A DNA stretch of 52,843 nt from a virus (Duplodnaviria > Caudoviricetes): the IMG/VR virus record IMGVR_UViG_3300045789_000414, positions 1 to 52,843 of that record; one strand, given 5' to 3'. Positions 1 to 52,843 of this stretch are shown here, piece after piece. Made by a program: the position numbers and the translations under genes. The notes below the pieces were generated by a model. The model did no database searches, was not told the DNA's origin, and was given only the letters and a program-made list of their open reading frames with translations. The number at the start of each line of letters is the position of its first letter. Position 1 is the first letter of the stretch.

Positions 1-69
1 CATACTCCCTATCAATAACACAGTTTTCTACATTCTCAGCAAACCATGTAATTTTGTGTGTGCAATCAC
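1..69. repeat. Terminal direct repeat (copy 1), identical to 52775-52843; circular assembly overlap
   Basis: Exact 69-bp identity CATACTCCCT...TGCAATCAC at both ends; an ORF reads through the junction. Confidence 0.95.
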
Positions 70-116
70 AATGCTTGTTAACTCTTAAGTGTTCCATCAA
101 TCTCTCCTGTTCGTTC

Positions 117-141
117 ACGCCTAACAAGGCTCATTAGATCG
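117..141 (+). other. attC remnant (R'' box and start of left arm)
   Basis: ACGCCTAAC-AAGGCTCA; ACGCCTAAC is the exact reverse complement of GTTAGGCGT at 52547-52555. Confidence 0.6.
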
Positions 142-372
142 GTATAGCCTATTTCCATCTAATATCCCGAATGGCATTTGACCGCCTGCTAAAAAACCTT
201 TTATAAGCATTACATCGTTTTCATTGATATGCAAAAAAGGCATACTGCTATTTTTAAACCTATTACTGCCCGTCTCTTCGCTAAGCCAGTCTATAAGCGG
301 CTGAAGTTCGTATCTACATATTTCGCAATGGTTACTATCATTACTTTCTATGTTGCAAATGTAGCAGTCCAT
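121..372 (-). CDS. Hypothetical protein with N-terminal CxxC...CxxC
   Basis: 83-aa ORF co-oriented with neighbours. Confidence 0.6.
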   Translation of the reverse strand: MDCYICNIESNDSNHCEICRYELQPLIDWLSEETGSNRFKNSSMPFLHINENDVMLIKGFLAGGQMPFGILDGNRLYRSNEPC

Positions 373-435
373 AAATAACCTTATAATTAATAACTAGATA
401 ATAACATATTTCAACAAAAGAGAAACATTTATTTA

Positions 436-783
436 CTATTTATTTTCCCACCATTGATTGTCACTGCTTATCATCTGATTCTCCCTGCTGTGCCAAGGGT
501 AATGAATGCCGGACTGCTTAATCATGTGAAGTTCAAATACTTGGTAAGCTTCTTGTATTTCTACTGTTGTTAGCTGTGAACTTGTCTTTCCGTACATGGC
601 TTTTGTTACTTCATCGAATAATAGCTTCATGTTTTCTTTTGTCCACAAGACTTTAAATCCGCGCTTATGAGCCTTTTCTATGAATACGTGGTAATCGAAT
701 CCGGCCTCATTTAACTCATTAGCGTAGCCGTCCAGTGTTGAGTGTAGGCTTTTATTCTGAAGCCTCGTTCTTTTCTCGCTCAT
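436..783 (-). CDS. NinB-like recombination accessory protein
   Basis: N-terminal RTRLQNKSLH and ...TSSQLTTVEI resemble NinB motifs. Confidence 0.55.
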   Translation of the reverse strand: MSEKRTRLQNKSLHSTLDGYANELNEAGFDYHVFIEKAHKRGFKVLWTKENMKLLFDEVTKAMYGKTSSQLTTVEIQEAYQVFELHMIKQSGIHYPWHSRENQMISSDNQWWENK

Positions 784-940
784 CGCCTATTTCTCAACCT
801 AGCTGCATTTTTACGCAAACGCTTTTGATCTGCTTTATTAACTCGCTGCTCATCATGCTTCCAGCCGCAGCTTGGTTTTTTAATCCCGACGTTAGTATCT
901 GAAAACATAGAAAATAAGCTCATTAGTAGTGTTTTTTTCT

Positions 941-1231
941 TCATTTCTTAGACCTAACCTTCATTAATAAATTAATCGCCTTGCGTAGCTTCTCATCACC
1001 TGTTCTATCTAGGTGAGCCTGTATCTCTTCGCGTGGATGCTTAAGCCATTTTTTAGCCTCTTTATCACGCTTTATACATTCAAGCTGATGCGCTCGCATC
1101 TCGTCTTTCTCTTGCTGGCTAAGTTGTGCAAAGCTCACGATAACCTCGCATGCTCTGGACAATACCAATTCTCTGACCCTTTTAAACTTCCTGTAACGCT
1201 CCCAGCCTTGTGACAATGATTCACAGCACAC
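941..1231 (-). CDS. Hypothetical protein (true start probably downstream, near 1138)
   Basis: ORF in the leftward operon overlapping the upstream gene. Confidence 0.5.
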   Translation of the reverse strand: MCCESLSQGWERYRKFKRVRELVLSRACEVIVSFAQLSQQEKDEMRAHQLECIKRDKEAKKWLKHPREEIQAHLDRTGDEKLRKAINLLMKVRSKK

Positions 1232-1689
1232 GTAGCCTCACTTCCTCTGTTTGGCGACCTTATCAGCCCTTTGCGCTTGTCCTGCGCTATTAACTGGTGA
1301 TGTCTTTCAAGAAGAATATCGTGGTCAGTAGCATTTTCGCCTAGTTGAGCCTTTGCCAGTTCTTCGATAACGTCAATAGCATGTGTCGGAGGTGGTAATG
1401 CTGCTTGCTTTTCAGCTTCTAGCCTTTCTGCGTTTTCTTTTTGTGCTTTTTTCCTATCACTATGAAGCTCCTTAAGGACATCGAGTATGTGCGATGGTGA
1501 TGGCTGCGACTTATACTTAGTAGTGTAAACGCCGAAAGCGTATTTTATTTCAGCTAAATCGAAACCTCTAAGCATCCTCCACCAAGCGCGTTTCTCTTCT
1601 TTATCGGGAAGGTCATCTTTTTTGACTTTAAGTAGTTTGAAGCTAGTATCTATTAATTCTTGAAATTCTGTTGAGTCGTTATCATTCAT
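1135..1689 (-). CDS. Putative replication protein (helicase loader/inhibitor, lambda P/G39P-like)
   Basis: WWRMLRGFDLAEIKYAF...PSPSHI pattern; downstream of the replication-initiator-like gene. Confidence 0.5.
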   Translation of the reverse strand: MNDNDSTEFQELIDTSFKLLKVKKDDLPDKEEKRAWWRMLRGFDLAEIKYAFGVYTTKYKSQPSPSHILDVLKELHSDRKKAQKENAERLEAEKQAALPPPTHAIDVIEELAKAQLGENATDHDILLERHHQLIAQDKRKGLIRSPNRGSEATCAVNHCHKAGSVTGSLKGSENWYCPEHARLS

Positions 1690-2413
1690 TGCTTTCCCCT
1701 ATCCTATTTCTAGCAATTTCAAAATATTCGCTGGATAACTCAATCCCGATAAATTTGCGGTTTAGGTTTTTGCAGGCTACACCTGTAGTTCCACTGCCCA
1801 TGAAAGGGTCTAGAACAACCTCTCCTACCAAACTAGAGTTACTAACATATAGCTCCATAAGCTCTATAGGTTTCTGTGTTGGGTGTTGTTTACCTCTAAT
1901 GTTGTCAAACTTATGACAGGTTTTACTGCCGCTATCAGTAATCGCCTTTGCTTTTCCTTTTCTAGCGAAAATTGTGTACTCCACATTCTTCATGTACCAA
2001 CGATTAGGTGTAGCAGTATTCTTCTCCCACACCAATAGATTATGTATCTCAAACCCTGCTGACCTAAGCTCCTTCATTAGCTTCTCAAGGTTCTTAAAGT
2101 TGACCATAAAATAAGCATGGCTTTCAGGTTTTAAAACTCTAAAACATTCAGGAAGCCAATCTGAGAAATTTGGTATAGTTTTCATCAACTGCTTGTTATC
2201 AGTTAGTATTCCTTTTGGCGAACCAACCCCTTTATTGCCTCCAGTTATGACATCATAAGGTGGGTCAGTTAATATCATCGAAATTGAATTGTCAGGAATA
2301 AACTTCATTGCATTTAAGCAGTCATCATTTATTAATGTATTTGGTTCAATCTCAAACCCTTCTGTTAAATCATCTTTATTTAATATAATCATCTTTGCTC
2401 TCTGTATCATCAT
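1682..2413 (-). CDS. Site-specific DNA methyltransferase, N6/N4 family (beta class)
   Basis: DPPY catalytic motif, HPTQKP, DPFMGSGTT SAM-binding motif. Confidence 0.92.
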   Translation of the reverse strand: MMIQRAKMIILNKDDLTEGFEIEPNTLINDDCLNAMKFIPDNSISMILTDPPYDVITGGNKGVGSPKGILTDNKQLMKTIPNFSDWLPECFRVLKPESHAYFMVNFKNLEKLMKELRSAGFEIHNLLVWEKNTATPNRWYMKNVEYTIFARKGKAKAITDSGSKTCHKFDNIRGKQHPTQKPIELMELYVSNSSLVGEVVLDPFMGSGTTGVACKNLNRKFIGIELSSEYFEIARNRIGESNE

Positions 2414-2768
2414 CAGTTAAAACCTCACTAACTGTAATTTCAGGCTTCATATCGAAACAACTAGGTTCGTTTAACTCATCGGCTGTTGCGTGTTGTGACA
2501 CTGTGTTTTCTGCGAAGTGCTCTAACTTCTCACCGCTCCTGCAAATAAGCTCAATATCATTAAAGGGTTTATTACGTGGATTAGCGCCCATCGACCAAGC
2601 ATCTTGACGGCATCCGTTAATAGCATCTTTTATATCGTCTATCTCATAACCTTCTTTCAATCTGTCTTTAATAGCCTTGCTTCGCTTAGGTGTTAGCTTG
2701 CATTTATTAGGGTTTTTGTCCATCGCCACAACCCAGTAATTGAATATGTATTGTATATCGTCTTTCAT
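2376..2768 (-). CDS. Phage replication initiator/replisome-organiser-like protein (likely start MKDDIQ at 2768)
   Basis: IFNYW...LTPKR..AIK.RLKEGY..DDIKDAI.GC..D.W motif typical of phage replication proteins; GGAG RBS before ATG 2768. Confidence 0.55.
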   Translation of the reverse strand: MKDDIQYIFNYWVVAMDKNPNKCKLTPKRSKAIKDRLKEGYEIDDIKDAINGCRQDAWSMGANPRNKPFNDIELICRSGEKLEHFAENTVSQHATADELNEPSCFDMKPEITVSEVLTDDDTESKDDYIK

Positions 2769-2890
2769 ATTAACTCCGTTAGTCAATCCGTATAAAAAAG
2801 CTGCGGCGTTGAGTACGGTTCTCAATGTTCGGTAATTATCCTAGCCGCAACTTAAAGTCTTGTTTATTCCGCTTATTGCTGCTGTTAGCT
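2768..2890 (+). other. Degenerate long attC-like site
   Basis: TATTAAC...TAGTCAATCCGTATAAA...TTTATTCCGCTTATTGCTGCT-GTTAGCT; right arm intact, left arm decayed. Confidence 0.55.
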
Positions 2891-3163
2891 GTCTTGAACT
2901 ACCCAGTTATTCTTTTCCATTGCGCTAGCTGCACAACCATGAAAAACGCCTCTCTGAAATTGTGCAATGTCTTGCGCTTTATACGCTCGATCACATACAT
3001 TGCAATCATCGTCATGGTATTTATTCAGCATTGTCATAAGCTCTTTTTCAGCATCTTCTAAATGATCTATGTATTTATACATAATCTGAATCTGATTTTT
3101 CATTGACTCAATTTCATATTCTTGCGAGTCTGTTTTATTTTCTAAGTTTTCAACATATTCCAT
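2885..3163 (-). CDS. Hypothetical coiled-coil protein carried in an attC cassette (2885-3252)
   Basis: 92-aa ORF; stop inside GTTAGCTGT, which matches ACAGCTAAC at 3199-3207. Confidence 0.7.
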   Translation of the reverse strand: MEYVENLENKTDSQEYEIESMKNQIQIMYKYIDHLEDAEKELMTMLNKYHDDDCNVCDRAYKAQDIAQFQRGVFHGCAASAMEKNNWVVQDS

Positions 3164-3200
3164 AGCATTTTTCCCATCTGGTGAAATTGGTTAATCAAAC

Positions 3201-3258
3201 AGCTAACAAAGCGCTCAATCGGACTGCGCAAGCTTGCAGCTTAGCGCAAAGGTTATGT
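3201..3258 (+). other. attC site (58 bp)
   Basis: AGCTAAC-AAAGCGCTCAATCGGACTGC...GCAGCTTAGCGCAAAG-GTTATGT; R''/R' boxes; L'' GCGCT(C)AA pairs with L' TTAGCGC leaving an extra base. Confidence 0.85.
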
Positions 3259-4008
3259 TGCACTAATTCTATCTTGTGCAATCTTAAAGTATTCTTCTAC
3301 CTTCTCAATTCCAACAAAATCCCTATTATTTATCTTTGCCATCTTTCCTGTAGTACCGCTTCCCATAAATGGGTCGAAGACTGTATCACCTTCGTTGCTC
3401 CAGCTTATAATATGATCGTGTGCTAGTTTTTCAGGGAAAATTGCTGGGTGGCCTGTCCCATTGCCACCTGTGCCATATCGCCATACATTTGATCGCCTAC
3501 TGTATTCGCCTGTAGTCAAGTATTTATCGCTTTTTACGTTTGCACCTTTGTTAATTACCTTATCTTTACGCTTTCTTGCCCCTGCTGTTTTGTTCTTGTG
3601 GTCTACAATAAAATTTAATGCTTTCGGCTTTCCTTTACTGAAAACAAACATATATTCAACTACATTGTAGTAACGGTCTTGCGTGGGTATTCTTGAGGCT
3701 TTCTCAAAGAACATCGTGTCATGCAAATTAAACCCACACTCCTTCGCCCATAACGCTTGACTGAATGACGTACCTGTCTCACTGCCTTTAATTGTTGCGT
3801 CACCAACCACCCAAACAACAACGCCACCTTGCTTTGTCACCCTATGTAGCTCTTTGATGACCACTTTCCAAACGTGCTCCCCCCACTGCTCATTGTTGCC
3901 GTTGTAGCTTCTGAGATTATCGTAAGGTGGCGAGGTTACTGTTAAATCAATACAGCCATCGTCCATTTCTGCCATAGCTTTCAGACAGTCATCGTTTATT
4001 AATTTCAA
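3253..4008 (-). CDS. Site-specific DNA methyltransferase, N4-cytosine/N6 family, in attC cassette (3253-4086)
   Basis: TSPPY, HPAIFP, DPFMGSGTT motifs. Confidence 0.92.
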   Translation of the reverse strand: MKLINDDCLKAMAEMDDGCIDLTVTSPPYDNLRSYNGNNEQWGEHVWKVVIKELHRVTKQGGVVVWVVGDATIKGSETGTSFSQALWAKECGFNLHDTMFFEKASRIPTQDRYYNVVEYMFVFSKGKPKALNFIVDHKNKTAGARKRKDKVINKGANVKSDKYLTTGEYSRRSNVWRYGTGGNGTGHPAIFPEKLAHDHIISWSNEGDTVFDPFMGSGTTGKMAKINNRDFVGIEKVEEYFKIAQDRISAT

Positions 4009-4036
4009 TTTATTCTCCTAGTTTTGTGAAGGCGCA

Positions 4037-4092
4037 ACATAACAAAGCAAGTCAGTCGGACGCTTTCAGCGCCGCTGCTCGCAAGGTTATTT
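4037..4092 (+). other. attC site (56 bp)
   Basis: ACATAAC-AAAGCAAGTCAGTCGGACGC-TTTCA-GCGCCGCTGCTCGCAAG-GTTATTT. Confidence 0.85.
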
Positions 4093-4281
4093 ATCTACAG
4101 GCAACATATCCCTACAAGTAACCTTGCCACTTGTAGCGTCCTCAATTCGTATGGCTAAGCATAGCCCAGCATTACGATTACCGCTTAAGATATTGCTGAG
4201 GTAGCTTGGCAATATCCCAATCTTTTTTGCAAAGTCTTTCTTAAGAATTTTGTTCTCTTTTAAATATTTTTCTAATGTCAT
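4087..4281 (-). CDS. Cro-like XRE helix-turn-helix regulator
   Basis: MTLEKYLK...FAKKIGI.PSYLSNILSG.R...LAIRIEDATSGKVT. Confidence 0.85.
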   Translation of the reverse strand: MTLEKYLKENKILKKDFAKKIGILPSYLSNILSGNRNAGLCLAIRIEDATSGKVTCRDMLPVDK

Positions 4282-4475
4282 TTCTATTTCTCTTTTTTAT
4301 TAAATTCATCACCACCAAATAAAAGCCAGCACCTATCACATAAGCCATCATGGTTAGCACTTGCGTCACGTTCACCGCACTCTTCACATACTGGGCCTTT
4401 AAGGGCTACTATAAGTAATATTGCTAAGAATATTAGTAAGTAATACATGTATTTTCTCCTGCTTTTAATTCATTG

Positions 4476-4500
4476 TTCCGCTTATTACTGCTGTTATACG
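4476..4500 (+). other. attC right-arm remnant (L'-R')
   Basis: TTCCGCTTATTACTGCT-GTTATACG, near-identical to 2867-2890. Confidence 0.6.
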
Positions 4501-4766
4501 CCAAGCCTTTCGAATACGTGGAATACCAATCCGTTGTGCATAAAACCTGTCCCCGTATATCTGAACTTAAATCCAATCTGTCTTGGTATCTCATGACCAG
4601 TTCCAAACGCGTAAAACGACCTAGTTCGTAACTGATTATTTGTATTTACTCTTGCCCATAAGCAAAGGCTTCCCCCTTTGAATGCGGCAGTGAGTACTTC
4701 TGCTAGCGCTGGCATGTTAATCTCTGGGTTACTTGGGTCTATAATATATTTATGTATAGTATCCAT
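4494..4766 (-). CDS. Conserved phage hypothetical protein in a decayed cassette
   Basis: TIHKY...LCLWA.V...GTGH...VFHVFE pattern common in phages; flanked by GTTATACG and CGTGTAAC (4786-4793). Confidence 0.75.
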   Translation of the reverse strand: MDTIHKYIIDPSNPEINMPALAEVLTAAFKGGSLCLWARVNTNNQLRTRSFYAFGTGHEIPRQIGFKFRYTGTGFMHNGLVFHVFERLGV

Positions 4767-4923
4767 CTTGCTTCTCCGCTTAATTCGTGTAACAAGTCAC
4801 CCAAATTGAGTGTTAATTCATAACTTAACGATACTTTAACCGATGATTAAACATTATGCAAGAGGTAAATGTAATAAATGTAAAAAAAGACCCAGCCAAA
4901 GAACCTTCACTTGAAACGTGGGG

Positions 4924-4952
4924 TTGACAATGACCGAGCCTTATTTTATACT
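4924..4952 (+). promoter_or_regulatory. Sigma70-type promoter
   Basis: TTGACA-17bp-TATACT. Confidence 0.75.
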
Positions 4953-5413
4953 GCCATCTAATCAGCGAGTTAGTAGCTCCTGATTAGTTAGTTGAAGGAC
5001 ACCAACTCCTAGCAACTAATTGAATATATTTTAATTCAATTCATCTTAAAAAGCAAACGTTGGTTTTTAGTCTCGGTGGAAGTGACGGTCGGCTGAAGTA
5101 AAAACGTGATAGACGGGTGTATTTAATCACAACGCTAAGAGTGACTTTAGTAGAGCGGGTATATTGGATTAATCCTTGCCTTAACTCAGATTAAAGGGCG
5201 TATCGGGCGTAATACTGAGCTGTTCACAGCGATACAAAGCGATACCAGTTAAGGAAGTGTCCTTGCCTTAGCCTGAATGATACCGATGCTGATTCGCGTT
5301 AGGTTGATTTTTAGAAGCTCATCTTTACTCATACTTTAATGGGTAAGGGTGAGTATTGCCTGAATTCCTCCTCGCCTCAAACGCTTAGGTTAATAACATA
5401 AGGAATAAGAACA

Positions 5414-5842
5414 ATGACAATGACTGGTAAAGAGTATCTTGCAAAGCACGATAAAAAAGTAAAGTCTAAACTAAGGGCTAAGCGAAGAAAGGCAAAGAAG
5501 AAAAAACAAAATTTTTCTATAGGCTCTTTTGAACAAAATCAAATAAATTCTTCAGCAAGTAAAATGAGGCGGTATTCACATAAAGACTTAAAGAAAAAGA
5601 ATTATAGCGCCTTTTACAGGTCAGACGAATGGCTAAGAATCAGGTATCTGGCATTAAAGAATACTGACGGAAGATGCTGCTGTTGTGGAATATCTGCTAA
5701 AGATGGAGCAATACTAAACGTTGACCATATTAAGCCGCGATCAAGATACCCTGAGTTAGAACTAGACCTTGATAATATGCAAATACTATGCCAGTTTTGT
5801 AACACAGGGAAGGGCGCTTGGGACTGTACCGACTGGCGTTAG
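5414..5842 (+). CDS. HNH endonuclease with basic N-terminal extension
   Basis: FYRSDEW..R...CCCCG...LNVDHIKP...DNMQILCQFCN.GKG. Confidence 0.9.
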   Translation: MTMTGKEYLAKHDKKVKSKLRAKRRKAKKKKQNFSIGSFEQNQINSSASKMRRYSHKDLKKKNYSAFYRSDEWLRIRYLALKNTDGRCCCCGISAKDGAILNVDHIKPRSRYPELELDLDNMQILCQFCNTGKGAWDCTDWR

Positions 5843-5922
5843 TAAATGATTGCTATTGCCTAAAATAATAGACAGCATAAAGAACTTTTCTAAATTAATT
5901 TACATTTATTTATCAATTGGTA

Positions 5923-5950
5923 TTGACAGTACGGTTATTCGTGCTAATAT
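5923..5950 (+). promoter_or_regulatory. Sigma70-type promoter
   Basis: TTGACA-16bp-TAATAT with extended -10 TG. Confidence 0.55.
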
Positions 5951-5982
5951 GAACTTACACAAACGGTAAAGGAATAAATAAA

Positions 5983-6618
5983 ATGATTGATTTAACAAAG
6001 TTTAAACTTGAAGAACTTCAGAAAAAAATTAAAAAGACTGTTGATGGTAAGGATGTGGAAATCTATACAGTACATAAAGACCAAAAGTACCCTATATTTG
6101 GCGCCTTTCTAATTGATGACGAATGGGTGCAGAATGATTGGAAGAGAAACGGTGAGTATATGGACTGCCCCGAAGACAATAGAAATAACCTAAACCTATC
6201 AGCCTTCACGACGGAAATAGACTATAACCAATTACCAGTTGATACGCTTATAGAAGTTGAGGGCATAGGCAAAAGATATACAGCAGGGATGACTCCATGT
6301 CATGGCGATCTAGTCTTTTTTTTCAGTGACGGGAGGGACAGTAATACAGAAATAGAATATACACGCGCCGAAAAAGAAACATGCAAGCTAATAACCAACC
6401 CTAGGAAAGGATGGTTTGGCGGCGAAATCGGTATTCCTGATGGGGTTAAATTGAGAGTATGGGAGGCTGAGATATTGTTTGGCGTATTATATTCTAATAC
6501 CCGCATCAAAATAATGGATGAGGATTTACGCAAAGGATTTAACAAATCAAGTGGGCATACAGGAATAACCAGCTATCAAATACTAGGTGAAGATTATCAA
6601 GAAGGAGATGAATTATGA
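5983..6618 (+). CDS. Hypothetical protein
   Basis: 211-aa ORF with AAGGA RBS. Confidence 0.75.
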   Translation: MIDLTKFKLEELQKKIKKTVDGKDVEIYTVHKDQKYPIFGAFLIDDEWVQNDWKRNGEYMDCPEDNRNNLNLSAFTTEIDYNQLPVDTLIEVEGIGKRYTAGMTPCHGDLVFFFSDGRDSNTEIEYTRAEKETCKLITNPRKGWFGGEIGIPDGVKLRVWEAEILFGVLYSNTRIKIMDEDLRKGFNKSSGHTGITSYQILGEDYQEGDEL

Positions 6619-6748
6619 TTGACCAAAGAAGAAACTGTGAAGAACGCGATAGACGAGAAAACCGCAAACTAAGAAACTCAATGATTGCTTTTTATTCAAT
6701 CCTTGGCGTTAGTATATTGGCTTTAACTCACACGATTTACGCAGCGCT

Positions 6749-7168
6749 ATGAATACATTTACTCAATCATTAGCAATCAATATCGGTAACTCAAGAACCG
6801 ATGCTAGTTTTGATTGCTATGTTTATCTCGATAGCTTCTGTGAAGATTTTAAAATGAATATTGGGGTTACGGTTAAGCTTGAGGTTGAGATGATTTTATA
6901 CGCTGATTCATCGCAGTACGAGACAAGCGACATTGAAATCAAAGAGGTTCGCTTAATCTTTGCTAACGACCAGCATGTTGACCTTACTTATGATGACTAT
7001 CAGTATAGGTCTATTGACTGCGATGAAATAAAAGAATACATATTATCTGAAGCAAGCACTGAAATAACTAAGGCATGGGCTGACGAAATTGAGGCCCAAG
7101 CAGAAGATGATGGAGACTACCGATATGAACTTCAAAAGCAGGAATTCTTGGATGAGGAAATGTTATGA
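6749..7168 (+). CDS. Acidic hypothetical protein
   Basis: 139-aa ORF in coupled operon; start uncertain. Confidence 0.65.
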   Translation: MNTFTQSLAINIGNSRTDASFDCYVYLDSFCEDFKMNIGVTVKLEVEMILYADSSQYETSDIEIKEVRLIFANDQHVDLTYDDYQYRSIDCDEIKEYILSEASTEITKAWADEIEAQAEDDGDYRYELQKQEFLDEEML

Positions 7169-7410
7169 ATAAAACAATAGAAATTTTAATTGACGAGCAG
7201 TACGGTGAAGAGATTTATGAGCTTACTTACTCGGTTAAAGGTGATGCCAGCGATGCTATAGAGACTCAAGCAATACAGATCATCATGTTAAAGGATAGCC
7301 AAGGCCACGATATAACAAGCGATGTTTCCAATCCGTTTTTAGAAGATGATGAATTTAGACGTGTTTGCATAGAGAAAGCCCTAGAATATGAAGAAGGTGA
7401 AATATTATGA
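7165..7410 (+). CDS. Acidic hypothetical protein
   Basis: ATGA overlaps on both sides. Confidence 0.7.
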   Translation: MNKTIEILIDEQYGEEIYELTYSVKGDASDAIETQAIQIIMLKDSQGHDITSDVSNPFLEDDEFRRVCIEKALEYEEGEIL

Positions 7411-8492
7411 GCAGGAATATTGCAGAATATATCGAAGATACCAAGGAAAGGTTTAACGAGATAGCACCTAACGGTATAAAGTATTCTTCTGAAAAAGGAT
7501 TCGCCATACAGTTATTAAAAGCTAATGAATATCTAATGGGCGTTGCAATAAAAAACCCGCAGTCATTACAGCAAGCAATAACAAACGTGGCTGCTATTGG
7601 TCTTTCTTTAAACCCTGCTGAGAAACTTGCTTACCTAATCCCTCGAAATGTTAAGGTCGGGAAGAGCTGGGAAAGTCGCGTCTATCTTGAGCCTTCTTAT
7701 ATGGGTTTAATAAGACTAGCAACTAACTCAGGCGGGATTGCTTGGATTCAGGCCGCCGTTGTTAAGCAGAATGACTCCTTTAAGGACGTAGGTATGGGGC
7801 AAGCGCCACTACATGAATATGAGGCTTTCGGTGATCGCGGTGATGTGGTTGGAGTATATGCTGTGGCCAAGACAAAAGACGGTGATTATCTAACAGAAAT
7901 AATGACGTTAGAAGAGGTCCATAAAATAAGGGATAGATCAGAAAGTTATAAAAAATACCAATCTGGCACTTGGGTAACTGACTTTATAGAAATGGCTAAG
8001 AAGGCCGTCATAAGACGATTATTCAAAACCCTACCATTGACCGATGAGAACGCAAGAATGGCTCATGCCATCGACCTGTCGAACGCTAACGCGGATATAG
8101 AGCAGATTGCTACATCGCCAAATGTCGGCAGCATATCAGTAGAACAAAAAAAGTTCTTTGATGAACTGATTGAAAAAGGTGACGCTTTCGGCATGACTGT
8201 CTTAATGAAGGGGCTTGATGAAAGAGAGTTTTCAAACTTGTATCATTCTTTCGAAAAAGGCACCAAGGGGAAGTATCAGAAGATAGTTGATGATCTAACA
8301 AAACGCGGCTCTAGCATCTTGGCTGATTATGTAACACAGTTCTCTGATATGTTAGAAGCTAACGACACTGACGGCGCTGGTGAGTTATTGGATGGAATGA
8401 ATAAAGAAGAGATTAACGTTATCTTGGATTCTTGCTCAACTGAGTGCTGTGCTTTTATTAATGAAGTTATTGAAAATGGTAGCGAGCTATGA
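7407..8492 (+). CDS. recT: RecT-family single-strand annealing recombinase
   Basis: AAIGLSLNP...AYLIP, SYMGLI.LA, W.TDF.EMAKKAVIRRLFKTLP. Confidence 0.88.
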   Translation: MSRNIAEYIEDTKERFNEIAPNGIKYSSEKGFAIQLLKANEYLMGVAIKNPQSLQQAITNVAAIGLSLNPAEKLAYLIPRNVKVGKSWESRVYLEPSYMGLIRLATNSGGIAWIQAAVVKQNDSFKDVGMGQAPLHEYEAFGDRGDVVGVYAVAKTKDGDYLTEIMTLEEVHKIRDRSESYKKYQSGTWVTDFIEMAKKAVIRRLFKTLPLTDENARMAHAIDLSNANADIEQIATSPNVGSISVEQKKFFDELIEKGDAFGMTVLMKGLDEREFSNLYHSFEKGTKGKYQKIVDDLTKRGSSILADYVTQFSDMLEANDTDGAGELLDGMNKEEINVILDSCSTECCAFINEVIENGSEL

Positions 8493-8887
8493 AAGAGAAT
8501 GAATGTCAATGGTGCGGAGGCCCCAAAACAATTAGAGAAGATGAAAGACCCTGTATATTTAGGATAAGGAAAACGTGTAGTCGTGAATGCAGAACTGCTT
8601 TAACAAATCACACAATGGCTAAGAAGAGAGCAGCCAATAAAATTGTAAAAAGAGTTGATATAAAGCCGCGAAGATGCCCAGAATGTGATAAACTATTTAG
8701 CATAAGAAAAAACGAAAGGGCCGATAGTTTTAAAAAATTGAAACGGTGCCCAGCTTGCACCGAAGAAAGAAACTCTACCAAGCCGTATAAATTGGAAGAA
8801 GTTCTATCAGTTTTAAAGAAGCGAGATAGGATGATGCAAATTGCAGTGCTTAGCCCGAAGATTGGGTTAATGCAATACATGAAATAA
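8489..8887 (+). CDS. Cys-rich zinc-finger protein
   Basis: CxxC...CSRxC and CxxC...CxxC repeats. Confidence 0.7.
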   Translation: MKENECQWCGGPKTIREDERPCIFRIRKTCSRECRTALTNHTMAKKRAANKIVKRVDIKPRRCPECDKLFSIRKNERADSFKKLKRCPACTEERNSTKPYKLEEVLSVLKKRDRMMQIAVLSPKIGLMQYMK

Positions 8888-8956
8888 CGCCGCTATAAGC
8901 GGTTGAAAATGAGGAGGAACGACGAATGAACAATCCGATTGATAGCCTTGTTATAT
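8882..8956 (-). other. attC site (75 bp)
   Basis: Minus strand ATATAAC-AAGGCTATCAATCGGATTG...CAACCGCTTATAGCGGC-GTTATTT. Confidence 0.85.
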
Positions 8957-9213
8957 GCAATGCCAATATAGAGCAGGGCTGGCGGTTTAGTACCGCAGAC
9001 TTTTCTTGTATTGCTAATGGTAGAAACAAGGCGGGAATAGTGCTCTTTATTAGAGAGCCAAGCGAAGTTGATAGGTGGCACATGCAGCCCGATGAGCTAA
9101 AAGAATCAGATGATTGCCCGCCTCTCTATGTTGTCGGGGAGGGAATGACTTTTGAAGAAGCGATTATAAATGCAAATTTGGCGGCAGCTCATGCGAAGCC
9201 GATAAGCATATAA
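8926..9213 (+). CDS. Hypothetical protein in attC cassette (8888-9213); RBS and start lie inside the attC
   Basis: GAGGAGG-N8-ATG within the attC loop; stop in GCATATAAC. Confidence 0.65.
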   Translation: MNNPIDSLVICNANIEQGWRFSTADFSCIANGRNKAGIVLFIREPSEVDRWHMQPDELKESDDCPPLYVVGEGMTFEEAIINANLAAAHAKPISI

Positions 9214-9265
9214 CACCCGCATAACCAGCGCATCTTTTAGCGTCCGGTTCATGCGATGGTTAGAA
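9208..9265 (-). other. attC site (58 bp)
   Basis: Minus strand TTCTAAC-CATCGCATGAACCGGACGC...GCGCTGGTTATGCGGGT-GTTATAT; close homologue of 52211-52266. Confidence 0.85.
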
Positions 9266-9292
9266 CAAATTTTAATTAGAAAAGGAAATAAA

Positions 9293-9619
9293 ATGACAAA
9301 TAAAATAGGTGTAAGCCTCAAAATTGATGTAAGCAAGATTGACAAAACAAGATTGTTTGAAGGCACCAAGGGAACTTATTTAGACGCAACTGTTTTTATT
9401 GATATTAACAATGAAGATCAGTACGGCAATAACGGATTTATAGCTCAATCAGTTAGCAAAGAAGAGCGGAAACAAGGCGTTAAGGGCGCGATACTAGGTA
9501 ACGTTAAGGTCTTTTATAAAGACAATAGCGAGTCTCAACAAGGCGGTAATTTTAGCGATGCTCCTAAGCAGCCTTCAGGCGCGATGGATGATTTTGATGA
9601 TGATATAATACCGTTTTAA
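9293..9619 (+). CDS. Phage single-stranded DNA-binding-like protein
   Basis: KIDVSKIDK..LF.G.KGTYLD...DQYGN.GFI.Q...ILGN; acidic tail DDFDDDIIPF; AAGGA RBS before ATG 9293. Confidence 0.75.
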   Translation: MTNKIGVSLKIDVSKIDKTRLFEGTKGTYLDATVFIDINNEDQYGNNGFIAQSVSKEERKQGVKGAILGNVKVFYKDNSESQQGGNFSDAPKQPSGAMDDFDDDIIPF

Positions 9620-9648
9620 TTGACTCCATTCTAATTAGTGCGTACAAT
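9620..9648 (+). promoter_or_regulatory. Sigma70-type promoter for the downstream HNH-like gene
   Basis: TTGACT-17bp-TACAAT. Confidence 0.55.
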
Positions 9649-9677
9649 ATAAGTACACATAGAATGGAGGTTAAGCA

Positions 9678-10163
9678 ATGTTTGAAAAGAAATGCTTTAA
9701 ATGCGGAGAGACTAAGCAACTCTCCGATTTCTACAGGCACAGTAAAATGAAAGATGGTCATGTTAATAAGTGTAAGGAGTGTAACAAGTCTGACGTTAGC
9801 GCAAATTACCGTAAGAATATTGACCATTATAAGGCTTACGAGAAAAGCAGGGCTAACTTGCCTCACAGAGTTAAAGCTAGGAAGGATTACTCTAATTCAG
9901 AGGCTGGACTTGAAGCTGGTAAAATAGCTAGAAAAGCTTGGGTAGAAAGAAACGCCATAAAAAAAGGCGCTTCGACGATGGTTCGTAATGCTGTACGTAA
10001 CGGGAAATTAATTAGACCTAGTCATTGTTCAGATTGTGAATGCGAGCATAATAGATTACACGGGCACCACGATGATTATTCAAAGCCTTTAGATGTAAGA
10101 TGGCTTTGCCCAACTTGCCATAAGCAGTGGCATAAAATAAACGGTGCCGGATTGAATGGTTAA
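9678..10163 (+). CDS. Phage HNH-like zinc-finger endonuclease
   Basis: CFKCGETK.L.DFY...CKEC; C..C...HGHHDDYSKPLDVRWLC..CH. Confidence 0.8.
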   Translation: MFEKKCFKCGETKQLSDFYRHSKMKDGHVNKCKECNKSDVSANYRKNIDHYKAYEKSRANLPHRVKARKDYSNSEAGLEAGKIARKAWVERNAIKKGASTMVRNAVRNGKLIRPSHCSDCECEHNRLHGHHDDYSKPLDVRWLCPTCHKQWHKINGAGLNG

Positions 10164-10265
10164 TTTTAATCTTAGGTGAGTACATTCTGATACTACAACT
10201 CGTATATAGTCCTGCTGCCTTCAGGCTTAACGCCGTTCCTGAAGTACAGCTCTATATAGGATTAG

Positions 10266-10472
10266 ATGATTTTTATGACTAATTGGATTGATTCAGAAGA
10301 TGAAGTAAAACCCGTTGTAGCTAGAACGGTGTTGGCATATTGCCCTGACTGGAACAATAGCGGGTATCAAGTGTGTTACTGGGATGGGAAGGTTTTTAGG
10401 TACGAAGAGCAACCTAATGACGACTTCCATACCTATGTGAACTCATGGGCGATATTTATGGAAGCCGATTAA
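10266..10472 (+). CDS. DUF551-like small phage protein
   Basis: NWI.....P.....VL..........V..W pattern. Confidence 0.55.
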   Translation: MIFMTNWIDSEDEVKPVVARTVLAYCPDWNNSGYQVCYWDGKVFRYEEQPNDDFHTYVNSWAIFMEAD

Positions 10473-10475
10473 GGC

Positions 10476-10548
10476 ATATAACCAAAGTGTAGCTGGCGTG
10501 AATGAAGCGCCAGCGTAATGAACGTCCACGCTGACATAGTTGTTAGTG
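10476..10548 (-). other. attC site (73 bp)
   Basis: Minus strand CACTAAC-AACTATGTCAGCGTGGACG...CGCCAGCTACACTTTG-GTTATAT. Confidence 0.75.
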
Positions 10549-10560
10549 TGTAGGAGTTAG

Positions 10561-10899
10561 ATGATGGAAAGAGCGTTAATTGTAAGGCAGCCGTGGCTTG
10601 ATTTAATTTTGTCAGGTGAGAAAACTTGGGAAATGCGCAGTAAGCCTACAAAGGTGCGTGGGCGAATTGGGTTAATAGAGCAAGGCACTGGCCTAATTGT
10701 TGGTGAGTGCGAGCTGGTTAATTCTGGCGAGTCGATAAACAATTTTAATCTTGGTTACGGCCAGCATTTACACAAAGTGAATGATTTTGATTTGTTGGAA
10801 AAATGGCATTACCCGTGGGTATTAAGTAACGCGGTGCGGTATGAAGTGCCAATTAAATACAAACACCCGCGTGGAGCCGTAACGTGGGTGAGAATATAA
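10561..10899 (+). CDS. ASCH domain protein in attC cassette (10482-10899)
   Basis: ALIVRQPWLDLILSGEKTWEMRS (GxKxxExR) motif. Confidence 0.9.
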   Translation: MMERALIVRQPWLDLILSGEKTWEMRSKPTKVRGRIGLIEQGTGLIVGECELVNSGESINNFNLGYGQHLHKVNDFDLLEKWHYPWVLSNAVRYEVPIKYKHPRGAVTWVRI

Positions 10900-10949
10900 C
10901 GCCTAAAGAAGCCGCGCATCTATGCGTCGGCTTGCTTTACTTGTTAGCA
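10894..10949 (-). other. attC site (56 bp)
   Basis: Minus strand TGCTAAC-AAGTAAAGCAAGCCGACGCA-TAGA-TGCGCGGCTTCTTTAGGC-GTTATAT. Confidence 0.85.
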
Positions 10950-10953
10950 CTTT

Positions 10954-11253
10954 TTACGATGCCAAAGCACGAAGAACAGCACCAGGCTCTTTGGCGACAA
11001 CATTTAGCAAAACCAATGCCGGTCCATGAGGAGTACGGTCACCTCGCTCCCAGTGACGGAGCGTGCTCACACTGATACCAAACGCAGATGCGAATTCATT
11101 TTGAGACATGCCGACCTTTGCCCGAATATTTTTTACGTCCACTGGGCCAAACTCGTGAACGATGGCTTTTTTAACTTTACCCTCAGAAAACTCAATTGCC
11201 TCGGATAAGCCCTGTTTGATACTTGAGAAAGCGCTAGCCATTTGAACCACCAT
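10954..11253 (-). CDS. higA: HigA-type XRE-HTH antitoxin (NadS-like; probable start MASAF at 11241)
   Basis: DVKNIRAKVGMSQNEFA..FGISVSTLRHWERG.R.P.GPA..LL; downstream of toxin. Confidence 0.85.
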   Translation of the reverse strand: MVVQMASAFSSIKQGLSEAIEFSEGKVKKAIVHEFGPVDVKNIRAKVGMSQNEFASAFGISVSTLRHWERGDRTPHGPALVLLNVVAKEPGAVLRALAS

Positions 11254-11575
11254 AGTGCTTGAGTAAAAGTTGAGTTAATTTAGCAAGTTCATTGCGTTCA
11301 GCTTTGTTGATGTTAGCCTTTTCGCCCTTGCCAAAAACCGTTAAAAGAAAGAGTGGAATCTCGCCATTGTGATAGTAGTAAATCACTCTTACTCCACCAC
11401 TTTTCCCCCTTCCTTGAGCAGACCATCGAAGCTTCCTGATACCCCCAGTACCCTGCATAAGATCACTGGACTGAGGATGAGATGCTAAGTAATTGATAAT
11501 GCTCGCCTTTTCATCAGGCTTTAGTAGGCCTTCGGCGCGTTTCTGGAATTCAGGGAGCTCTACAATTGTCTGCAT
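11234..11575 (-). CDS. higB: RelE/HigB-2-type toxin
   Basis: GTGGIRKLRW...GKSGGVRVIYY...LLTVF.K.EKAN; toxin-first operon. Confidence 0.88.
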   Translation of the reverse strand: MQTIVELPEFQKRAEGLLKPDEKASIINYLASHPQSSDLMQGTGGIRKLRWSAQGRGKSGGVRVIYYYHNGEIPLFLLTVFGKGEKANINKAERNELAKLTQLLLKHYGGSNG

Positions 11576-11582
11576 AGGCCCA

Positions 11583-11612
11583 AGTGTAATCCATTGGATT
11601 ATAGTTCGTCAA
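11583..11612 (-). promoter_or_regulatory. TA promoter with palindromic operator
   Basis: TTGACG-18bp-TACACT on the minus strand overlapping TAATCCA-T-TGGATTA (11587-11601). Confidence 0.7.
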
Positions 11613-11627
11613 TGCATGGACTTGTAG

Positions 11628-11684
11628 TGCTAACAGTCACATAACAGGAAGCGTTTTTACTTCCTGTTCATGTGGCGGTTATGT
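11628..11684 (-). other. attC site (57 bp)
   Basis: Minus strand ACATAAC-CGCCACATGAACAGGAAG...CTTCCTGTTATGTGACT-GTTAGCA. Confidence 0.85.
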
Positions 11685-11939
11685 GAAGGCTTAATGAAAG
11701 GAGAGAGTATATGGCCATAGATAAATATATTGAAAAAAAACATAAATAATGCCTAATAAATCAGCTTGCATGATGTTAGCTAAAGTTAACGGAATAAACA
11801 CAAATAAACCAGTAAGATCATGTAAAATATAGCTTTAAGAACCTATCTTAGGACGGTTAGATGAGAACATGGAAAACAAAGTGCCTCGAAGAAGCAGGGA
11901 TATTAATAGCTGTTATTGATAAGCTAAGGGGTCTTAAGA

Positions 11940-12542
11940 GTGAGTAATCAAGCAGGGTCAGATAACAGTAAGCCCGAGTTAAAGAAGCTAACTGAGAGAG
12001 AAGAGTCCTTATGCCAAGCAATGTTAGTTAGCGATAACCAGTCTGAAGCATTCCGTAAGTCTAAGTATGCAACTGATAAAATGAGTCAGGCAACTATAAC
12101 TAAGCAGGCCAGCAGGTATTTCCAGAAACCCCATATTAGGGGGAGGATGGCTATTCTTACCCAAAAGCGTAACGAGAGATCAAAAATAGACGCTGATTAT
12201 GTTATAAAAAGACTGGCGGAAATAGATCAAATGGATGTCAAAGATATACTTGATGATGAAGGTGGATTGCTACCTGTCAATGAATGGCCTAAACAGTGGC
12301 GTATCACTGTTAGTGGTATAGAGGTGTCAAAGCTGAAAGTAGGGCAAGATGGCTCCGCTATACTTTCTAAGATTAAGTGGCCTGACAAAGTAAAGAACTT
12401 GGAGCTTATAGGCAAACATGTTGACGTCCAAGCATGGAGGGAAAAGATTGATGTCACCGTTGTGGACGAAGAAGATATATTGCAGAAGCGAATAAATAAA
12501 GTCGAAGAGCTGAAGAAATCGGCTCAACAAGCATCTGACTGA
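11940..12542 (+). CDS. terS: Terminase small subunit
   Basis: IDADYV..RL.EID.MD..DI...KIKWPDKVKNLEL.GKHVDVQA; directly upstream of TerL. Confidence 0.88.
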   Translation: MSNQAGSDNSKPELKKLTEREESLCQAMLVSDNQSEAFRKSKYATDKMSQATITKQASRYFQKPHIRGRMAILTQKRNERSKIDADYVIKRLAEIDQMDVKDILDDEGGLLPVNEWPKQWRITVSGIEVSKLKVGQDGSAILSKIKWPDKVKNLELIGKHVDVQAWREKIDVTVVDEEDILQKRINKVEELKKSAQQASD

Positions 12543-12545
12543 CAA

Positions 12546-13955: not shown

Positions 13956-14020
13956 CTTGATAAACAGCTTTATTGAATGAAATTAGGCTACCATTTCTCA
14001 AAACTAATCGTGAGAAATAG

Positions 14021-14377
14021 ATGATTGAGCAATTATCACCAGCAGAAATGAAGGAGGCAATAGCAAATGATCGTTATTGCAAAGAGTTAGGCGTAGCACT
14101 ATTTAAATCGAATCGCAGCCGTAAGTGGTATTTAGAGGTCGTAGATCACGGCAAACTAGCCATCGTAAAAATACCAGAGATCAGCATGAAGTACGGCGTT
14201 ATTGTGCATTTAACACAGTCAATCGAAGTTGATATAAAACGCGTTGTATTTGCAGGAGCAGAGCTTCTAGAGCGATTTAATCTAACACGAGGCAAGAGTG
14301 ATAATGATGATCTATTAAGCCTTGAGCGTAACATAGCAGGCGTTGTAGGTGCTAAAGACGGCGAGATATCAGTATGA
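14021..14377 (+). CDS. Hypothetical protein
   Basis: 118-aa ORF between TerL and portal. Confidence 0.7.
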   Translation: MIEQLSPAEMKEAIANDRYCKELGVALFKSNRSRKWYLEVVDHGKLAIVKIPEISMKYGVIVHLTQSIEVDIKRVVFAGAELLERFNLTRGKSDNDDLLSLERNIAGVVGAKDGEISV

Positions 14378-16835: not shown

Positions 16836-17045
16836 CGTGGATTTATTAGATGAGATTGACGACTACAGGAAAGATTTTTTAACCATTAGTCCTGACCTGC
16901 TAGATAAGATTATCAATGACTATGTTCAAGATACATATGGGTCGAGGCTTGTTCAATTAGAAAGCCGTAACAATGATTTAGTGGCGCAGCTAGAGCCGCT
17001 TTAGAAGCTAACTAGCGATTTTAAATTAAATAAGGATATTTAATC

Positions 17046-18152: not shown

Positions 18153-18206
18153 TACATCAATGAAGGTGTAAGCAGTTATTTTAATATTAATAAAAAGGAT
18201 TTAATT

Positions 18207-19151: not shown

Positions 19152-19167
19152 ACTAAAGGAGAAAATT

Positions 19168-19527: not shown

Positions 19528-19537
19528 GGAGAAAGAC

Positions 19538-19675: not shown

Positions 19676-19683
19676 CCACGACG

Positions 19684-25603: not shown

Positions 25604-25604
25604 T

Positions 25605-52210: not shown

Positions 52211-52266
52211 TTATAACTAGCGCATAAACCGGACGCAAAAGAGCGCCGGTTATGCGGGTGTTAGCT
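52211..52266 (+). other. attC site (56 bp)
   Basis: TTATAAC-TAGCGCATAAACCGGACGC-AAAAGA-GCGCCGGTTATGCGGGT-GTTAGCT. Confidence 0.85.
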
Positions 52267-52506
52267 GCCGCACTTCTCTGGCATCCCTTCATCATTAAAT
52301 TTGGGAGTAATGTATCCGCCAGCAGTGACACGCATTAGGTATTTATGTCCGTGTAGACACTGAACTGAAAAATCACTGTCACGGTACTCGTTATCCTTTA
52401 TGCGGTTGTCTATTTTTCCGCAACCAGTAACAGCTAACAAAGCAATCAGTGCGGACAAAGCAATCGCAGTTCTTTTAAAGTTTTTCATAATCTTCAGCTC
52501 TGTCAT
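52261..52506 (-). CDS. Small lipoprotein in an attC cassette
   Basis: Signal peptide MKNFKRTAIALSALIALLA with lipobox VTGC; stop within the R' box. Confidence 0.75.
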   Translation of the reverse strand: MTELKIMKNFKRTAIALSALIALLAVTGCGKIDNRIKDNEYRDSDFSVQCLHGHKYLMRVTAGGYITPKFNDEGMPEKCGS

Positions 52507-52531
52507 TTAATTAAAGTTAATCACCGGCTTT

Positions 52532-52555
52532 GCCAGCTATTTCGGGGTTAGGCGT
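52532..52555 (+). other. Internally deleted attC remnant
   Basis: CCAGCTA|TTTCGGG-GTTAGGCGT; CAGCTA echoes the upstream R' GTTAGCTG. Confidence 0.5.
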
Positions 52556-52843
52556 CTTGCATCTCAGCAAGCACACGATCAACATTAGCCTCAACAGCCA
52601 ATATACCTTCGATGATTGGCACAACTTCAAGAGGTCTATTTTTTCTTCTCCAATCGGAAACGTACATCCATCCCTCTTCGTTGGCTGCAAATTCTAAGTA
52701 CATGTCATCTTCGGTTGGGTCTGGGTACTTGAATGATATTGATACACCTGAGTAAGTCGGTTCATGTCTCTCTACATACTCCCTATCAATAACACAGTTT
52801 TCTACATTCTCAGCAAACCATGTAATTTTGTGTGTGCAATCAC
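52548..52843 (-). CDS. Hypothetical protein (107 aa) spanning the circular junction; starts at 97(-), ends at 52548
   Basis: Manual translation MEHLRVNKHCDC...VLAEMQDA* is open across the junction, with a GGAGAG RBS at 101-107; absent from the ORF track. Confidence 0.8.
   Translation of the reverse strand, partial: DCTHKITWFAENVENCVIDREYVERHEPTYSGVSISFKYPDPTEDDMYLEFAANEEGWMYVSDWRRKNRPLEVVPIIEGILAVEANVDRVLAEMQDA
52775..52843. repeat. Terminal direct repeat (copy 2)
   Basis: Identical to 1-69. Confidence 0.95.

Follow-up and report, generated by a model that had tools for sequence, protein, structure and literature searches.

Why should a box at one end of a hairpin be the exact reverse complement of a box that lies a whole gene away, when the two boxes flanking any one hairpin match less well? 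This question is raised by the IMG/VR record IMGVR_UViG_3300045789_000414, which we analyzed over its full length of 52,843 bases (hereafter the window) and in which hairpins resembling the attC recombination sites of integrons alternate with small genes. An earlier note, made from the sequence alone, had listed six such pairs, each formed by the R' box of one site and the R'' box of the next, and had read them as marks left by circular cassettes that integrated at G|TT. The window is the whole virus record and has a 69-nt terminal direct repeat, by which we take it to be circularly assembled; it is the complete genome of a marine phage with two divergent arrays of integron-type cassettes and without an integrase. 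We hold it to be probable, with good confidence, that a host integron integrase recombines the bottom strands of attC sites in the phage, both among themselves and with circular cassettes, and that the matched boxes are split R boxes.

Matched boxes at opposite ends of single units

All twelve boxes of the six pairs were found where the earlier note had placed them. Five pairs are exact reverse complements of 9 to 10 nt (Table 1), and the sixth, 4493/4786, has the one mismatch reported for it, which would be a G-T pair on the + strand. The pair 52547/117 spans the window ends; because the record is circularly assembled, its two boxes are adjacent once the circle is closed. To estimate the chance probability of such matches, we counted GTTA+5 words with a reverse complement 100-1500 nt downstream, both in the genome and in 200 dinucleotide-preserving shuffles. 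The genome holds 8 such pairs compared with 1.4 ± 1.2 in the shuffles, the highest shuffled count being 6 (0/200 reached 8). Five of the 8 are pairs of the earlier note and one lies at the end of an insertion sequence (IS; 51965/52209), while the two located in structural genes (25042/26100 and 41240/41680) fit the chance expectation.

Boxes were also compared across 13 curated junctions, with the match run counted beyond GTTA/TAAC. Runs of at least 5 nt occurred in 5/10 cassette-wise pairs, as against 2/134 non-cognate pairs and 0/12 in-situ pairs (Fisher p = 1e-5), and both matching non-cognate pairs stem from one box word that occurs twice. The longest run among the 12 in-situ pairs was 1, which bears out the earlier observation that boxes within a site match less well; the unit carrying an ASCH gene (10482-10899), said to show no match, indeed has a run of 0. 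Among the other window units, one further unit matches over 4 nt and one has a single mismatch. A further pair had been missed: the R' at 52260 has an 8-nt partner at 52430, which lies within the 5' coding portion of the open reading frame (ORF) 52261-52506. Across the window and five relatives, using sites found by the bacterial model R2 (described below), runs of at least 5 nt were present in 10/27 units of up to 1000 nt and runs of at least 4 nt in 15/27, compared with 0/44 in-situ sites with at least 4 nt; some rows of this 27-unit set are homologous duplicates among the relatives. Chance is ruled out as the explanation of the box pairs.

Folds and covariance models of the sites

On the sense strand, a compact site consists of TAAC, 3-4 unpaired bases, a stem, a short loop, and GTTA. 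Both the folds and the alignment show the 3' arm of the sense-strand stem with two bulged bases, in the manner of the extrahelical bases of attC sites. All of the model-supported window sites (9/9) start with TAAC and finish with GTTA on the sense strand, and the attC core consensus is given in the excerpted text of PMC5027507 as RYYYAAC ... GTTRRRY. According to that same excerpt, the attC bottom strand is the one that has the cleaved AAC in R' and, on the arm facing it, the extrahelical bases (Nivina et al. 2016, PMC5027507). Applied to the bulges seen here, this rule identifies the bottom strand with the sense strand of the phage genes, in the left and the right arm alike. The sites of the left and right arms are in mirror orientation, with 52206-52270 being approximately the reverse complement of 9204-9270.

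We built two covariance models for this analysis. R1 was made from 7 phage sites, six of them in the window, with a hand-drawn structure because the automatic structure from RNAalifold was one register off at the inner stem. In the window, R1 found its six training sites and two new ones (8879-8960 with 37 bits and 10472-10553 with 17.7 bits), and it found nothing significant over the structural genes. R1 also discriminates strands, with 54-66 bits on the sense strand versus 18-30 on the opposite strand at the four sites that had any score on the latter. R2 was made from 40 bacterial sites only, drawn from arrays of genomes that encode IntI, and it matched 9 window sites at E < 0.01, ranging from 64.2 to 22.4 bits and all lying on the phage sense strand. 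One of these was found by R2 only: a 131-nt site at 52427-52557 (30.6 bits, E = 2e-5) that overlaps the start of ORF 52261-52506 and includes the 8-nt partner of the box at 52260. Judged by a model of bacterial origin, the window sites are integron-type attC hairpins. A search of the whole window against Rfam 15 at the gathering score gave 0 matches.

When the circular sites were reconstituted in silico and their bottom strands folded, as the earlier note had proposed, the five exact pairs gained 4.2 to 8.4 kcal/mol over the in-situ hybrids. Arrayed attC sites are described as chimeric in the portion of Cury et al. 2016 (PMC4889954) drawn on here, and the site at 3196-3262 (S3199) is in situ such a chimera of two cassettes, with a fold of -15.4 kcal/mol reconstituted versus -10.5 kcal/mol in situ. 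The corresponding values are -21.3 versus -12.9 kcal/mol for the site at 4032-4096 (S4034) and -7.4 versus -3.2 kcal/mol for the cassette that wraps around the window ends. The reconstituted site of the unit 52547->52260 gained 2.7 kcal/mol. In each matched unit the cognate box gives a better fold than all 11 alternative boxes, and the three units without a box match show no gain on reconstitution.

To place the arrays among phages, R1 was run on 79 viral loci (885 kb) that had been fetched through RecT and a conserved 122-aa protein of the window. It gave 17 matches at E <= 0.01 in seven loci, these being six close relatives and, with a single match, L029. Since the matches are confined in this way, the arrays are a trait of a small lineage and not of all phages that share the 122-aa gene.

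Gain, loss, and relocation of units

A mobile unit starts with the C of an AA|C junction, ends with the AA of the following one, and contains its own attC hairpin. Breakpoints in relatives and in metagenome contigs, like the ends of homology with bacteria described below, fall at the G|TT of R', that is, AA|C on the bottom strand. The relatives compared were L002-L004, whose RecT is 99-100% identical, and L005, which has a 97%-identical homologue of a 149-aa backbone protein. All four are mosaics of the window. In the left arm, L003 and L004 have other units in place of 2885-4086, and the three sequences diverge directly past the G|TTA at 2884. This junction belongs to a long anchor site (A, 2768-2892) whose body is conserved in L003, L004, and L005, the sequence past G|TTA differing in all. 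The relatives diverge from the unit of ORF92 (2885-3252) at 2887-2895, and L003, L004, and L005 either lack the adjoining DNA methyltransferase unit (3253-4086) or have another in its place, the breaks falling at 4085-4099 and 2887-2895. In L003, 52264 is joined to 134, and this phage hence lacks two units including the wrapping cassette, which is present in L004.

Relocation was seen as well. The ORF81 unit (window 52547-52261) lies in L005 in a slot between the junctions equivalent to window 4086 and 2884; both joints are exactly AA|C, and the flanks on either side are unrelated to those in the window. The site at 9204-9270 together with the gene of the 122-aa protein has a TAA|C joint to a different upstream flank in each of five phages (the window, L002, L003, L004, and L011), and upstream of the body of the site at 52206-52270 (S52211), the window, L003, and L004 each have a different box. 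The ORF95 unit (8888-9213) is replaced in L002, L003, and L004, and the DUF7352 unit (4494-4812) is absent in L002 and L004 and replaced in L003.

Metagenome contigs came from four runs of four studies, in which stretches without contig cover (e.g., 10801-12000 in three runs) do not indicate absence. Run X4 has a joint 8890->9210, so that the ORF95 unit is absent, and another X4 contig has 2888-3256 adjoining 9211 on the opposite strand, which places the ORF92 unit in the other arm. In run X3, a contig end passes from 2887 directly into the letters of 3256-3267, the ORF92 unit being absent, and loose contig ends cluster at 3251-3256. A form without the DUF7352 unit is indicated by a joint 4464->4813, present in three of the runs. 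Weak joints with sides of 21-35 were also recorded: 1446->4099, 3970->4809, 3256->122, and 8888->10567.

A cassette common to the phage and an IntI-encoding bacterium

The unit at 10900-11633 is a toxin-antitoxin (TA) cassette, and homologues of its RelE-family toxin are common in marine Gammaproteobacteria. We fetched 80 bacterial loci around such homologues, in which R1 gave 47 matches at E <= 1, with 47/47 on the strand opposite the toxin gene and many clustered in arrays with a spacing of 300-1000 nt. An IntI above the TIGR02249 cut-off was found in 5/5 array genomes tested versus 0/14 control genomes. In L093, intI lies directly beside the array and on the same strand as the model matches, which is the canonical layout. 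Over whole genomes at E <= 0.01, R1 gave 4 matches in Oceanobacter antarcticus (G001) and 0 in G002, with 150 of about 1000 candidates scored, so that these counts carry little weight.

The TA unit aligns with an O. antarcticus contig (L084) at 89.3% identity over 738 nt, and the alignment covers window 11634-10897 only. Both limits of the homology are G|TT junctions, one being G|TTAGCAC at its start and the other the G of the unit's attC. TA cassettes from other bacteria have the same start and inverse-core words, combined with different attC bodies. To judge by this alignment, one bacterial cassette has been captured intact by the phage. The rest of window 1-12000 had no match at the DNA level in five bacterial genomes, and in a tblastn search of 12 window proteins against the sampled bacterial loci the antitoxin alone was matched, the 11 others having none. 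The bacterial arrays have the same excess of cassette-wise complementarity: counted from TTA, runs of at least 6 were found in 11/18 units of up to 1000 nt versus 1/47 in-situ sites, and these bacterial counts are lowered by several GTT boxes that the parser mis-located (rows reading G|TTTT).

As a separate observation, O. antarcticus G001 has 23 matches to the integron-integrase model on at least 9 contigs, most of them partial or with internal stops; this pattern points to several integron platforms, or to decayed copies of intI, within a single genome.

Reversed polarity of the phage units

Box complementarity is symmetric and so cannot by itself tell which of two boxes holds the crossover; the crossover position was derived from the comparisons above and from the bulge geometry. 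Three lines give the polarity. The bulge geometry and both models put the bottom strand on the sense strand; the TA unit is inserted with its own bottom strand co-linear with that of the phage sites; and the relocated units (ORF81 in L005, ORF92 in X4) have their hairpin 5' of the ORF and end at the ORF's stop codon. The order in a phage unit is attC and then gene, the reverse of the bacterial gene and then attC. The longest ORF is on the bottom strand in 11/15 phage units versus 1/22 bacterial units (top strand in 21/22), and most phage units do not have the promoterless top-strand ORF followed by attC of a canonical cassette, the TA unit being the only canonical one. Four phage units are forward. 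Among them is the TA cassette, whose genes have the canonical orientation relative to the unit's attC and which has its own promoter-like site at 11612-11583. As attC is 5' of the gene in most phage units, the recombinogenic bottom strand is the sense strand there, and the arrays would be transcribed through from the central divergent early region.

Mechanism and alternative explanations

In a circular unit, the last bases (xxxxxTAA) would pair with the box that follows the hairpin (GTTAyyyyy) to form an R box, and integration would put the two halves of that R box at opposite ends of the unit. Because integration splits the R box, a GTTA box finds its match in the TAAC box at a distance of one gene and not in the box that shares its chimeric site in situ. 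The integron integrase of the host would act on folded bottom strands during infection, both in attC x attC exchange and with circular cassettes, and the anchor sites ahead of backbone genes (9204-9270, 11624-11689, 52206-52270, and 2768-2892) would be the entry points. The proposal of the earlier note, that the matched pairs are halves of a cassette's own R box that were split when a circular cassette integrated at G|TT, is supported by four independent lines: units move at these junctions in relatives and contigs, the homology of the TA unit ends at G|TT, bacterial arrays show the same excess, and the reconstituted sites fold better. Neither intI nor another tyrosine recombinase is encoded, which makes the element a CALIN (cluster of attC sites lacking an integron integrase), and the window does not have the intI with adjoining attI and cassette promoter (Pc) of a complete integron. 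The CALIN presumably depends on host IntI; we infer both the identity of this recombinase and the timing of its action. The evidence for recombination by an integron integrase is indirect, and consists of the TA cassette found also in an IntI-encoding genome and of the published activity of IntI1 on attC sites of other phages (Qi et al. 2023, PMC9892861).

Several observations weigh against a role of the integron integrase or lessen the force of the evidence for it. A six-frame search for PF00589 (tyrosine recombinase) found none in the window and none in the records of five relatives, two of which are rated complete. Complementarity of the inverse core holds overall and fails in 3/10 window units, namely 9214-10481, 10482-10899 (ASCH), and 134-2884, the first and last of which are multi-gene backbone segments. 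At the end of the wrapping cassette, the junction 133|134 reads AA|T instead of AA|C. The fold gain of reconstituted sites comes partly by construction, through added base pairs, and R1 and R2 are models of our own making and not those of IntegronFinder or HattCI, with the alignment behind R2 fitted to the structure of R1. Both models missed the sites at 117-133 (a 12-nt stub), 4786-4812 (23 nt), and 2768-2892 (the long anchor); we regard the sites of the pairs at 117 and 4786, undetected by either, as decayed stubs. The DUF7352 indel, for which runs X3, X4, and X7 have a 4464->4813 joint sharing 9 letters, has a direct repeat of 9 nt at its ends and resembles the product of microhomology rather than of site-specific exchange. 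Finally, indels also occur away from attC sites (1690->2387/2415/2445, 5977->6615, 9573->10188, and the IS at 50850-52204).

Some of these points would be expected if the units were relics, that is, former integron units or copies of their design that are now exchanged at conserved hairpins by the phage's RecT and exonuclease or by microhomology, with the boxes as inherited scars. The phage does encode RecT and an exonuclease and no integrase, the ends of the DUF7352 indel carry a direct repeat, and several indels lie at plain gene boundaries. We nevertheless consider this explanation unlikely, as the partners at the informative junctions share TAAC only and have unrelated flanks (in L005 and in the five flanks at 9213|9214), and the same phosphodiester is broken in many independent comparisons. 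Further, box complementarity kept in 15/27 units implies selection for a working R box. A different recombinase might instead act on the hairpins, whether Xer-like or of another type and supplied by the host or a helper element, or else a phage protein that has gone unrecognized, with the likeness to attC being convergent. Many window ORFs have no family assignment and would leave room for such a protein, but the absence of PF00589 from the window and the relatives' records speaks against it, a bacterial attC model from IntI-encoding genomes scores the phage sites at up to 64 bits, and a cassette with its attC is common to the phage and an IntI-encoding bacterial genome; we judge this improbable. 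Least probable of all, to a degree that we would call very slight, is that the hairpins are signals of transcription or translation (terminators or stabilizers of mRNA) and that the box matches are by-products or due to chance. The hairpins do occupy intergenic positions on the sense strand, in many cases with a ribosome-binding site immediately following, yet chance is excluded for the box matches, and relocation unit by unit at AA|C would be left unexplained. Recombination by a host integron integrase is therefore the reading that we prefer.

Genome organization and coordinates of the units

The genome has a GC (guanine plus cytosine) content of 42.5%. Its structural genes, including those of a small terminase and an SU10-type portal, form a long run on the + strand from ~11.9 to 43 kb, in the tail region of which 31913-41599 is one single ORF of 3228 aa. 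A megablast search of window 12000-20000 against GenBank phages gave no match. The two small-gene arms diverge from a non-coding region at ~4.8-5.4 kb, where the strongest promoter-like site of the first 12 kb is located (4924-4952). The left arm, on the - strand, runs from ~4.8 kb down through base 1 and then into the 52-43 kb region, and its genes encode two N6_N4 DNA methyltransferases, an HTH protein, DUF7352, NinG, an exonuclease, and TnpB. The right arm, on the + strand, encodes an HNH protein, RecT, the conserved 122-aa protein, an endonuclease, and ASCH, with the RelE/HTH toxin-antitoxin pair on the opposite strand. The recombination genes of the phage are RecT at 7407-8492 and the exonuclease at 48246-49457 (phrog_704). 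Intrinsic terminators were tried as a candidate identity of the sites and rejected: 0/10 terminator-like matches in 1-12000 lie at a sense-strand site, and the count of 10 compares with a shuffle mean of 9.0.

The coordinates of units and sites are given in Table 1. The stop codon TAA of ORF92 is formed by the TTA of G|TTA at 2884/2885, and the methyltransferase ORF 3253-4008 matches Pfam PF01555 with E = 9e-44. The attC sites at 52427-52557 and 8878-8961 overlap the ribosome-binding site and first codons of their own cassette gene. The hydrophobic N-terminal stretch of ORF81 is encoded by the R''/L'' arm of attC 52427-52557; by our reading of the translation, the ORF81 product is a small protein with an N-terminus that appears lipoprotein-like.

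Table 1. Cassette units and attC sites of the window, ordered by position
Feature	Coordinates	Strand	Remarks
Wrapping cassette, part two	1..133	-	ORF start, leader, R'' 117-125, 12-nt site stub
Long anchor site A	2768..2892	-	Ahead of backbone gene 2376-2825; cassettes join at 2884|2885
Cassette ORF92	2885..3252	-	Exact 9-nt pair 2884/3199; bottom strand: C at 3252, attC body, R'' 3199-3207, ORF 2885-3163 (92 aa, no family)
attC S3199	3196..3262	-	R1 44 bits (training site), R2 24.4 bits; no + strand match listed
Methyltransferase cassette	3253..4086	-	Exact 10-nt pair 3252/4034; C at 4086, attC body, R'' 4034-4043, N6_N4 DNA methyltransferase ORF 3253-4008
attC S4034	4032..4096	-	R1 49.1 bits (training site), R2 37.5 bits
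Cassette DUF7352	4494..4812	-	23-nt stub site; pair 4493/4786 with one mismatch; Pfam PF24043
Cassette ORF95	8888..9213	+	attC 8878-8961 ahead of ORF 8926-9213; exact 9-nt pair 8950/9206; R1 37 bits though outside the training set, R2 50.6 bits
Anchor attC	9204..9270	+	Ahead of conserved 122-aa backbone gene 9251-9619
Weak attC	10472..10553	+	Ahead of ASCH gene (Pfam ASCH), unit 10482-10899; R1 17.7 bits, R2 22.4 bits
Toxin-antitoxin cassette	10900..11633	+	Unit's attC 10890-10954; exact 9-nt pair 10943/11626; genes on - strand: RelE-family toxin 11234-11575, HTH antitoxin 10954-11253 (Pfam)
Anchor attC	11624..11689	+	Ahead of small terminase gene; R1 54 bits (training site), R2 22.5 bits
Anchor attC S52211	52206..52270	-	Distal end of left array; R1 66.4 bits (training site), R2 53.3 bits
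Cassette ORF81	52261..52547	-	131-nt attC 52427-52557 overlaps ORF start; 8-nt pair 52260/52430
Wrapping cassette, part one	52548..52843	-	ORF from 52548 to base 3; exact 9-nt pair 52547/117

The genome also varies outside the cassette units. The first methyltransferase gene (1682-2413) and ORF 5983-6618 are present or absent among relatives and contigs with plain gene boundaries and without attC. The endonuclease gene 9678-10163 (161 aa, phrog_2340) lies in an indel, window 9574-10187; in L002, L004, L011, and contigs of three metagenome runs, 9573 is joined to 10185/10188 with ~25 other letters between. This indel looks like an insertion of the homing-endonuclease type and is not bounded by attC. 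At 50850-52204 lies a 1355-nt IS200/IS605-like element with TnpB only (tnpB 50868-51962 on the - strand, and a small + strand ORF at ~52011-52150). It is inserted directly past the R'' of attC 52206-52270, 3' of TTTAAC on the - strand, and has the 9-nt inverted pair 51965/52209 at its end; L003 and L004 are without it and have an otherwise identical flank. In L003 (4287-4351 and flanks), no stop codon closes the homologue of ORF 121-372 at the junction; as we read the sequence, its frame stays open across the attC body as far as the TAA of the R'' region, and the hairpin would then encode a different C-terminal tail. Compared with the window, L004/G007 has RecT and early genes that are 99% identical and structural modules that are unrelated; the 35-kb record G007 has a rating of complete, and window 25501-26532 has a reverse-oriented match in L002. 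Outside the cassette arrays, too, this lineage is strongly mosaic.

Relation to known systems and meaning for the phage lineage

Cassette-wise complementarity of R' and R'' is standard integron knowledge. The phage arrays resemble bacterial chromosomal integrons (the L093 array and the L084 cassette) in attC architecture, attC polarity, the G|TT crossover, cassette-wise complementarity, and the RelE/HTH cassette; they differ in having no intI, attI, or Pc and in that their ORFs are mostly on the bottom strand. Sedentary chromosomal integrons contain reverse-oriented cassettes with their own promoter, mostly toxin-antitoxin cassettes, and such cassettes share with the phage units an ORF that is antisense to the attC top strand. 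There, they are exceptions within a forward array, whereas in the phage the reversed order is the rule, is co-oriented with transcription, and has the TA unit as a forward member. Mosaic phages also have linkers at gene boundaries, such as the promoter stem-loops of T4-type phages and the boundary sequences of lambdoid phages, at which exchange proceeds by homology of the shared linkers. The likeness lies in short intergenic elements where related phages swap modules; here, however, the phage partners share four bases only and the elements fit a bacterial attC model.

Closest to the present case are the attC clusters without integrase, including methyltransferase cassettes, that are described in virulent phages in the text excerpted from Qi et al. 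2023 (PMC9892861). That excerpt gives 17 CALINs in 10,705 phage genomes, each with at least 2 attC sites, and recombination by IntI1 of 5/6 tested phage attC sites (Qi et al. 2023, PMC9892861). As far as it describes them, these CALINs share with ours the attC-bounded cassettes without intI, the N6_N4 methyltransferase cassettes, and the marine setting, and Polaribacter phage P12002L likewise has attC sites in divergent directions. Compared with what is described there, the window has at least 9 model-supported sites in two divergent arrays, population evidence of gain, loss, and relocation of units, and a cassette common to a bacterial genome; further, the arrays of TJE1 and PH101 are presented as typical of bacterial arrays, whereas most units here are reversed. 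On P12002L, R1 gave only 15.5 bits (E = 0.77) between two methyltransferase genes, which is too weak to use. A full-text literature search, judged by titles and abstract openings, returned besides Qi et al. 2023 no paper devoted to phage attC arrays.

With the R'/R'' signature being textbook knowledge and phage CALINs published in 2023, we see in the finding an extension of a known kind rather than the founding of a new one. To the known cases this genome contributes a denser double array, cassette traffic at the population level in phages without an integrase, an intact bacterial cassette, and the reversed polarity. It provides direct genomic evidence that integron-type cassette exchange operates within an integrase-less phage lineage, and the matched boxes give a testable map of unit ends, which relatives and metagenomes confirm. 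The reversed order of attC and gene points to an origin of the phage cassettes other than simple borrowing from bacterial arrays, and it leads one to ask where and by what process such units arise. With somewhat less than even confidence, we propose that these phages may keep their own pool of reversed-polarity cassettes, with two divergent arrays by the early control region that are fed by the host integron integrase during infection. If this is true, the pool would be a swappable store of accessory and counter-defense genes (methyltransferases and genes of no known family), mirroring the defense stores of bacterial chromosomal integrons, and occasional forward cassettes such as the TA unit would come straight from the host array.

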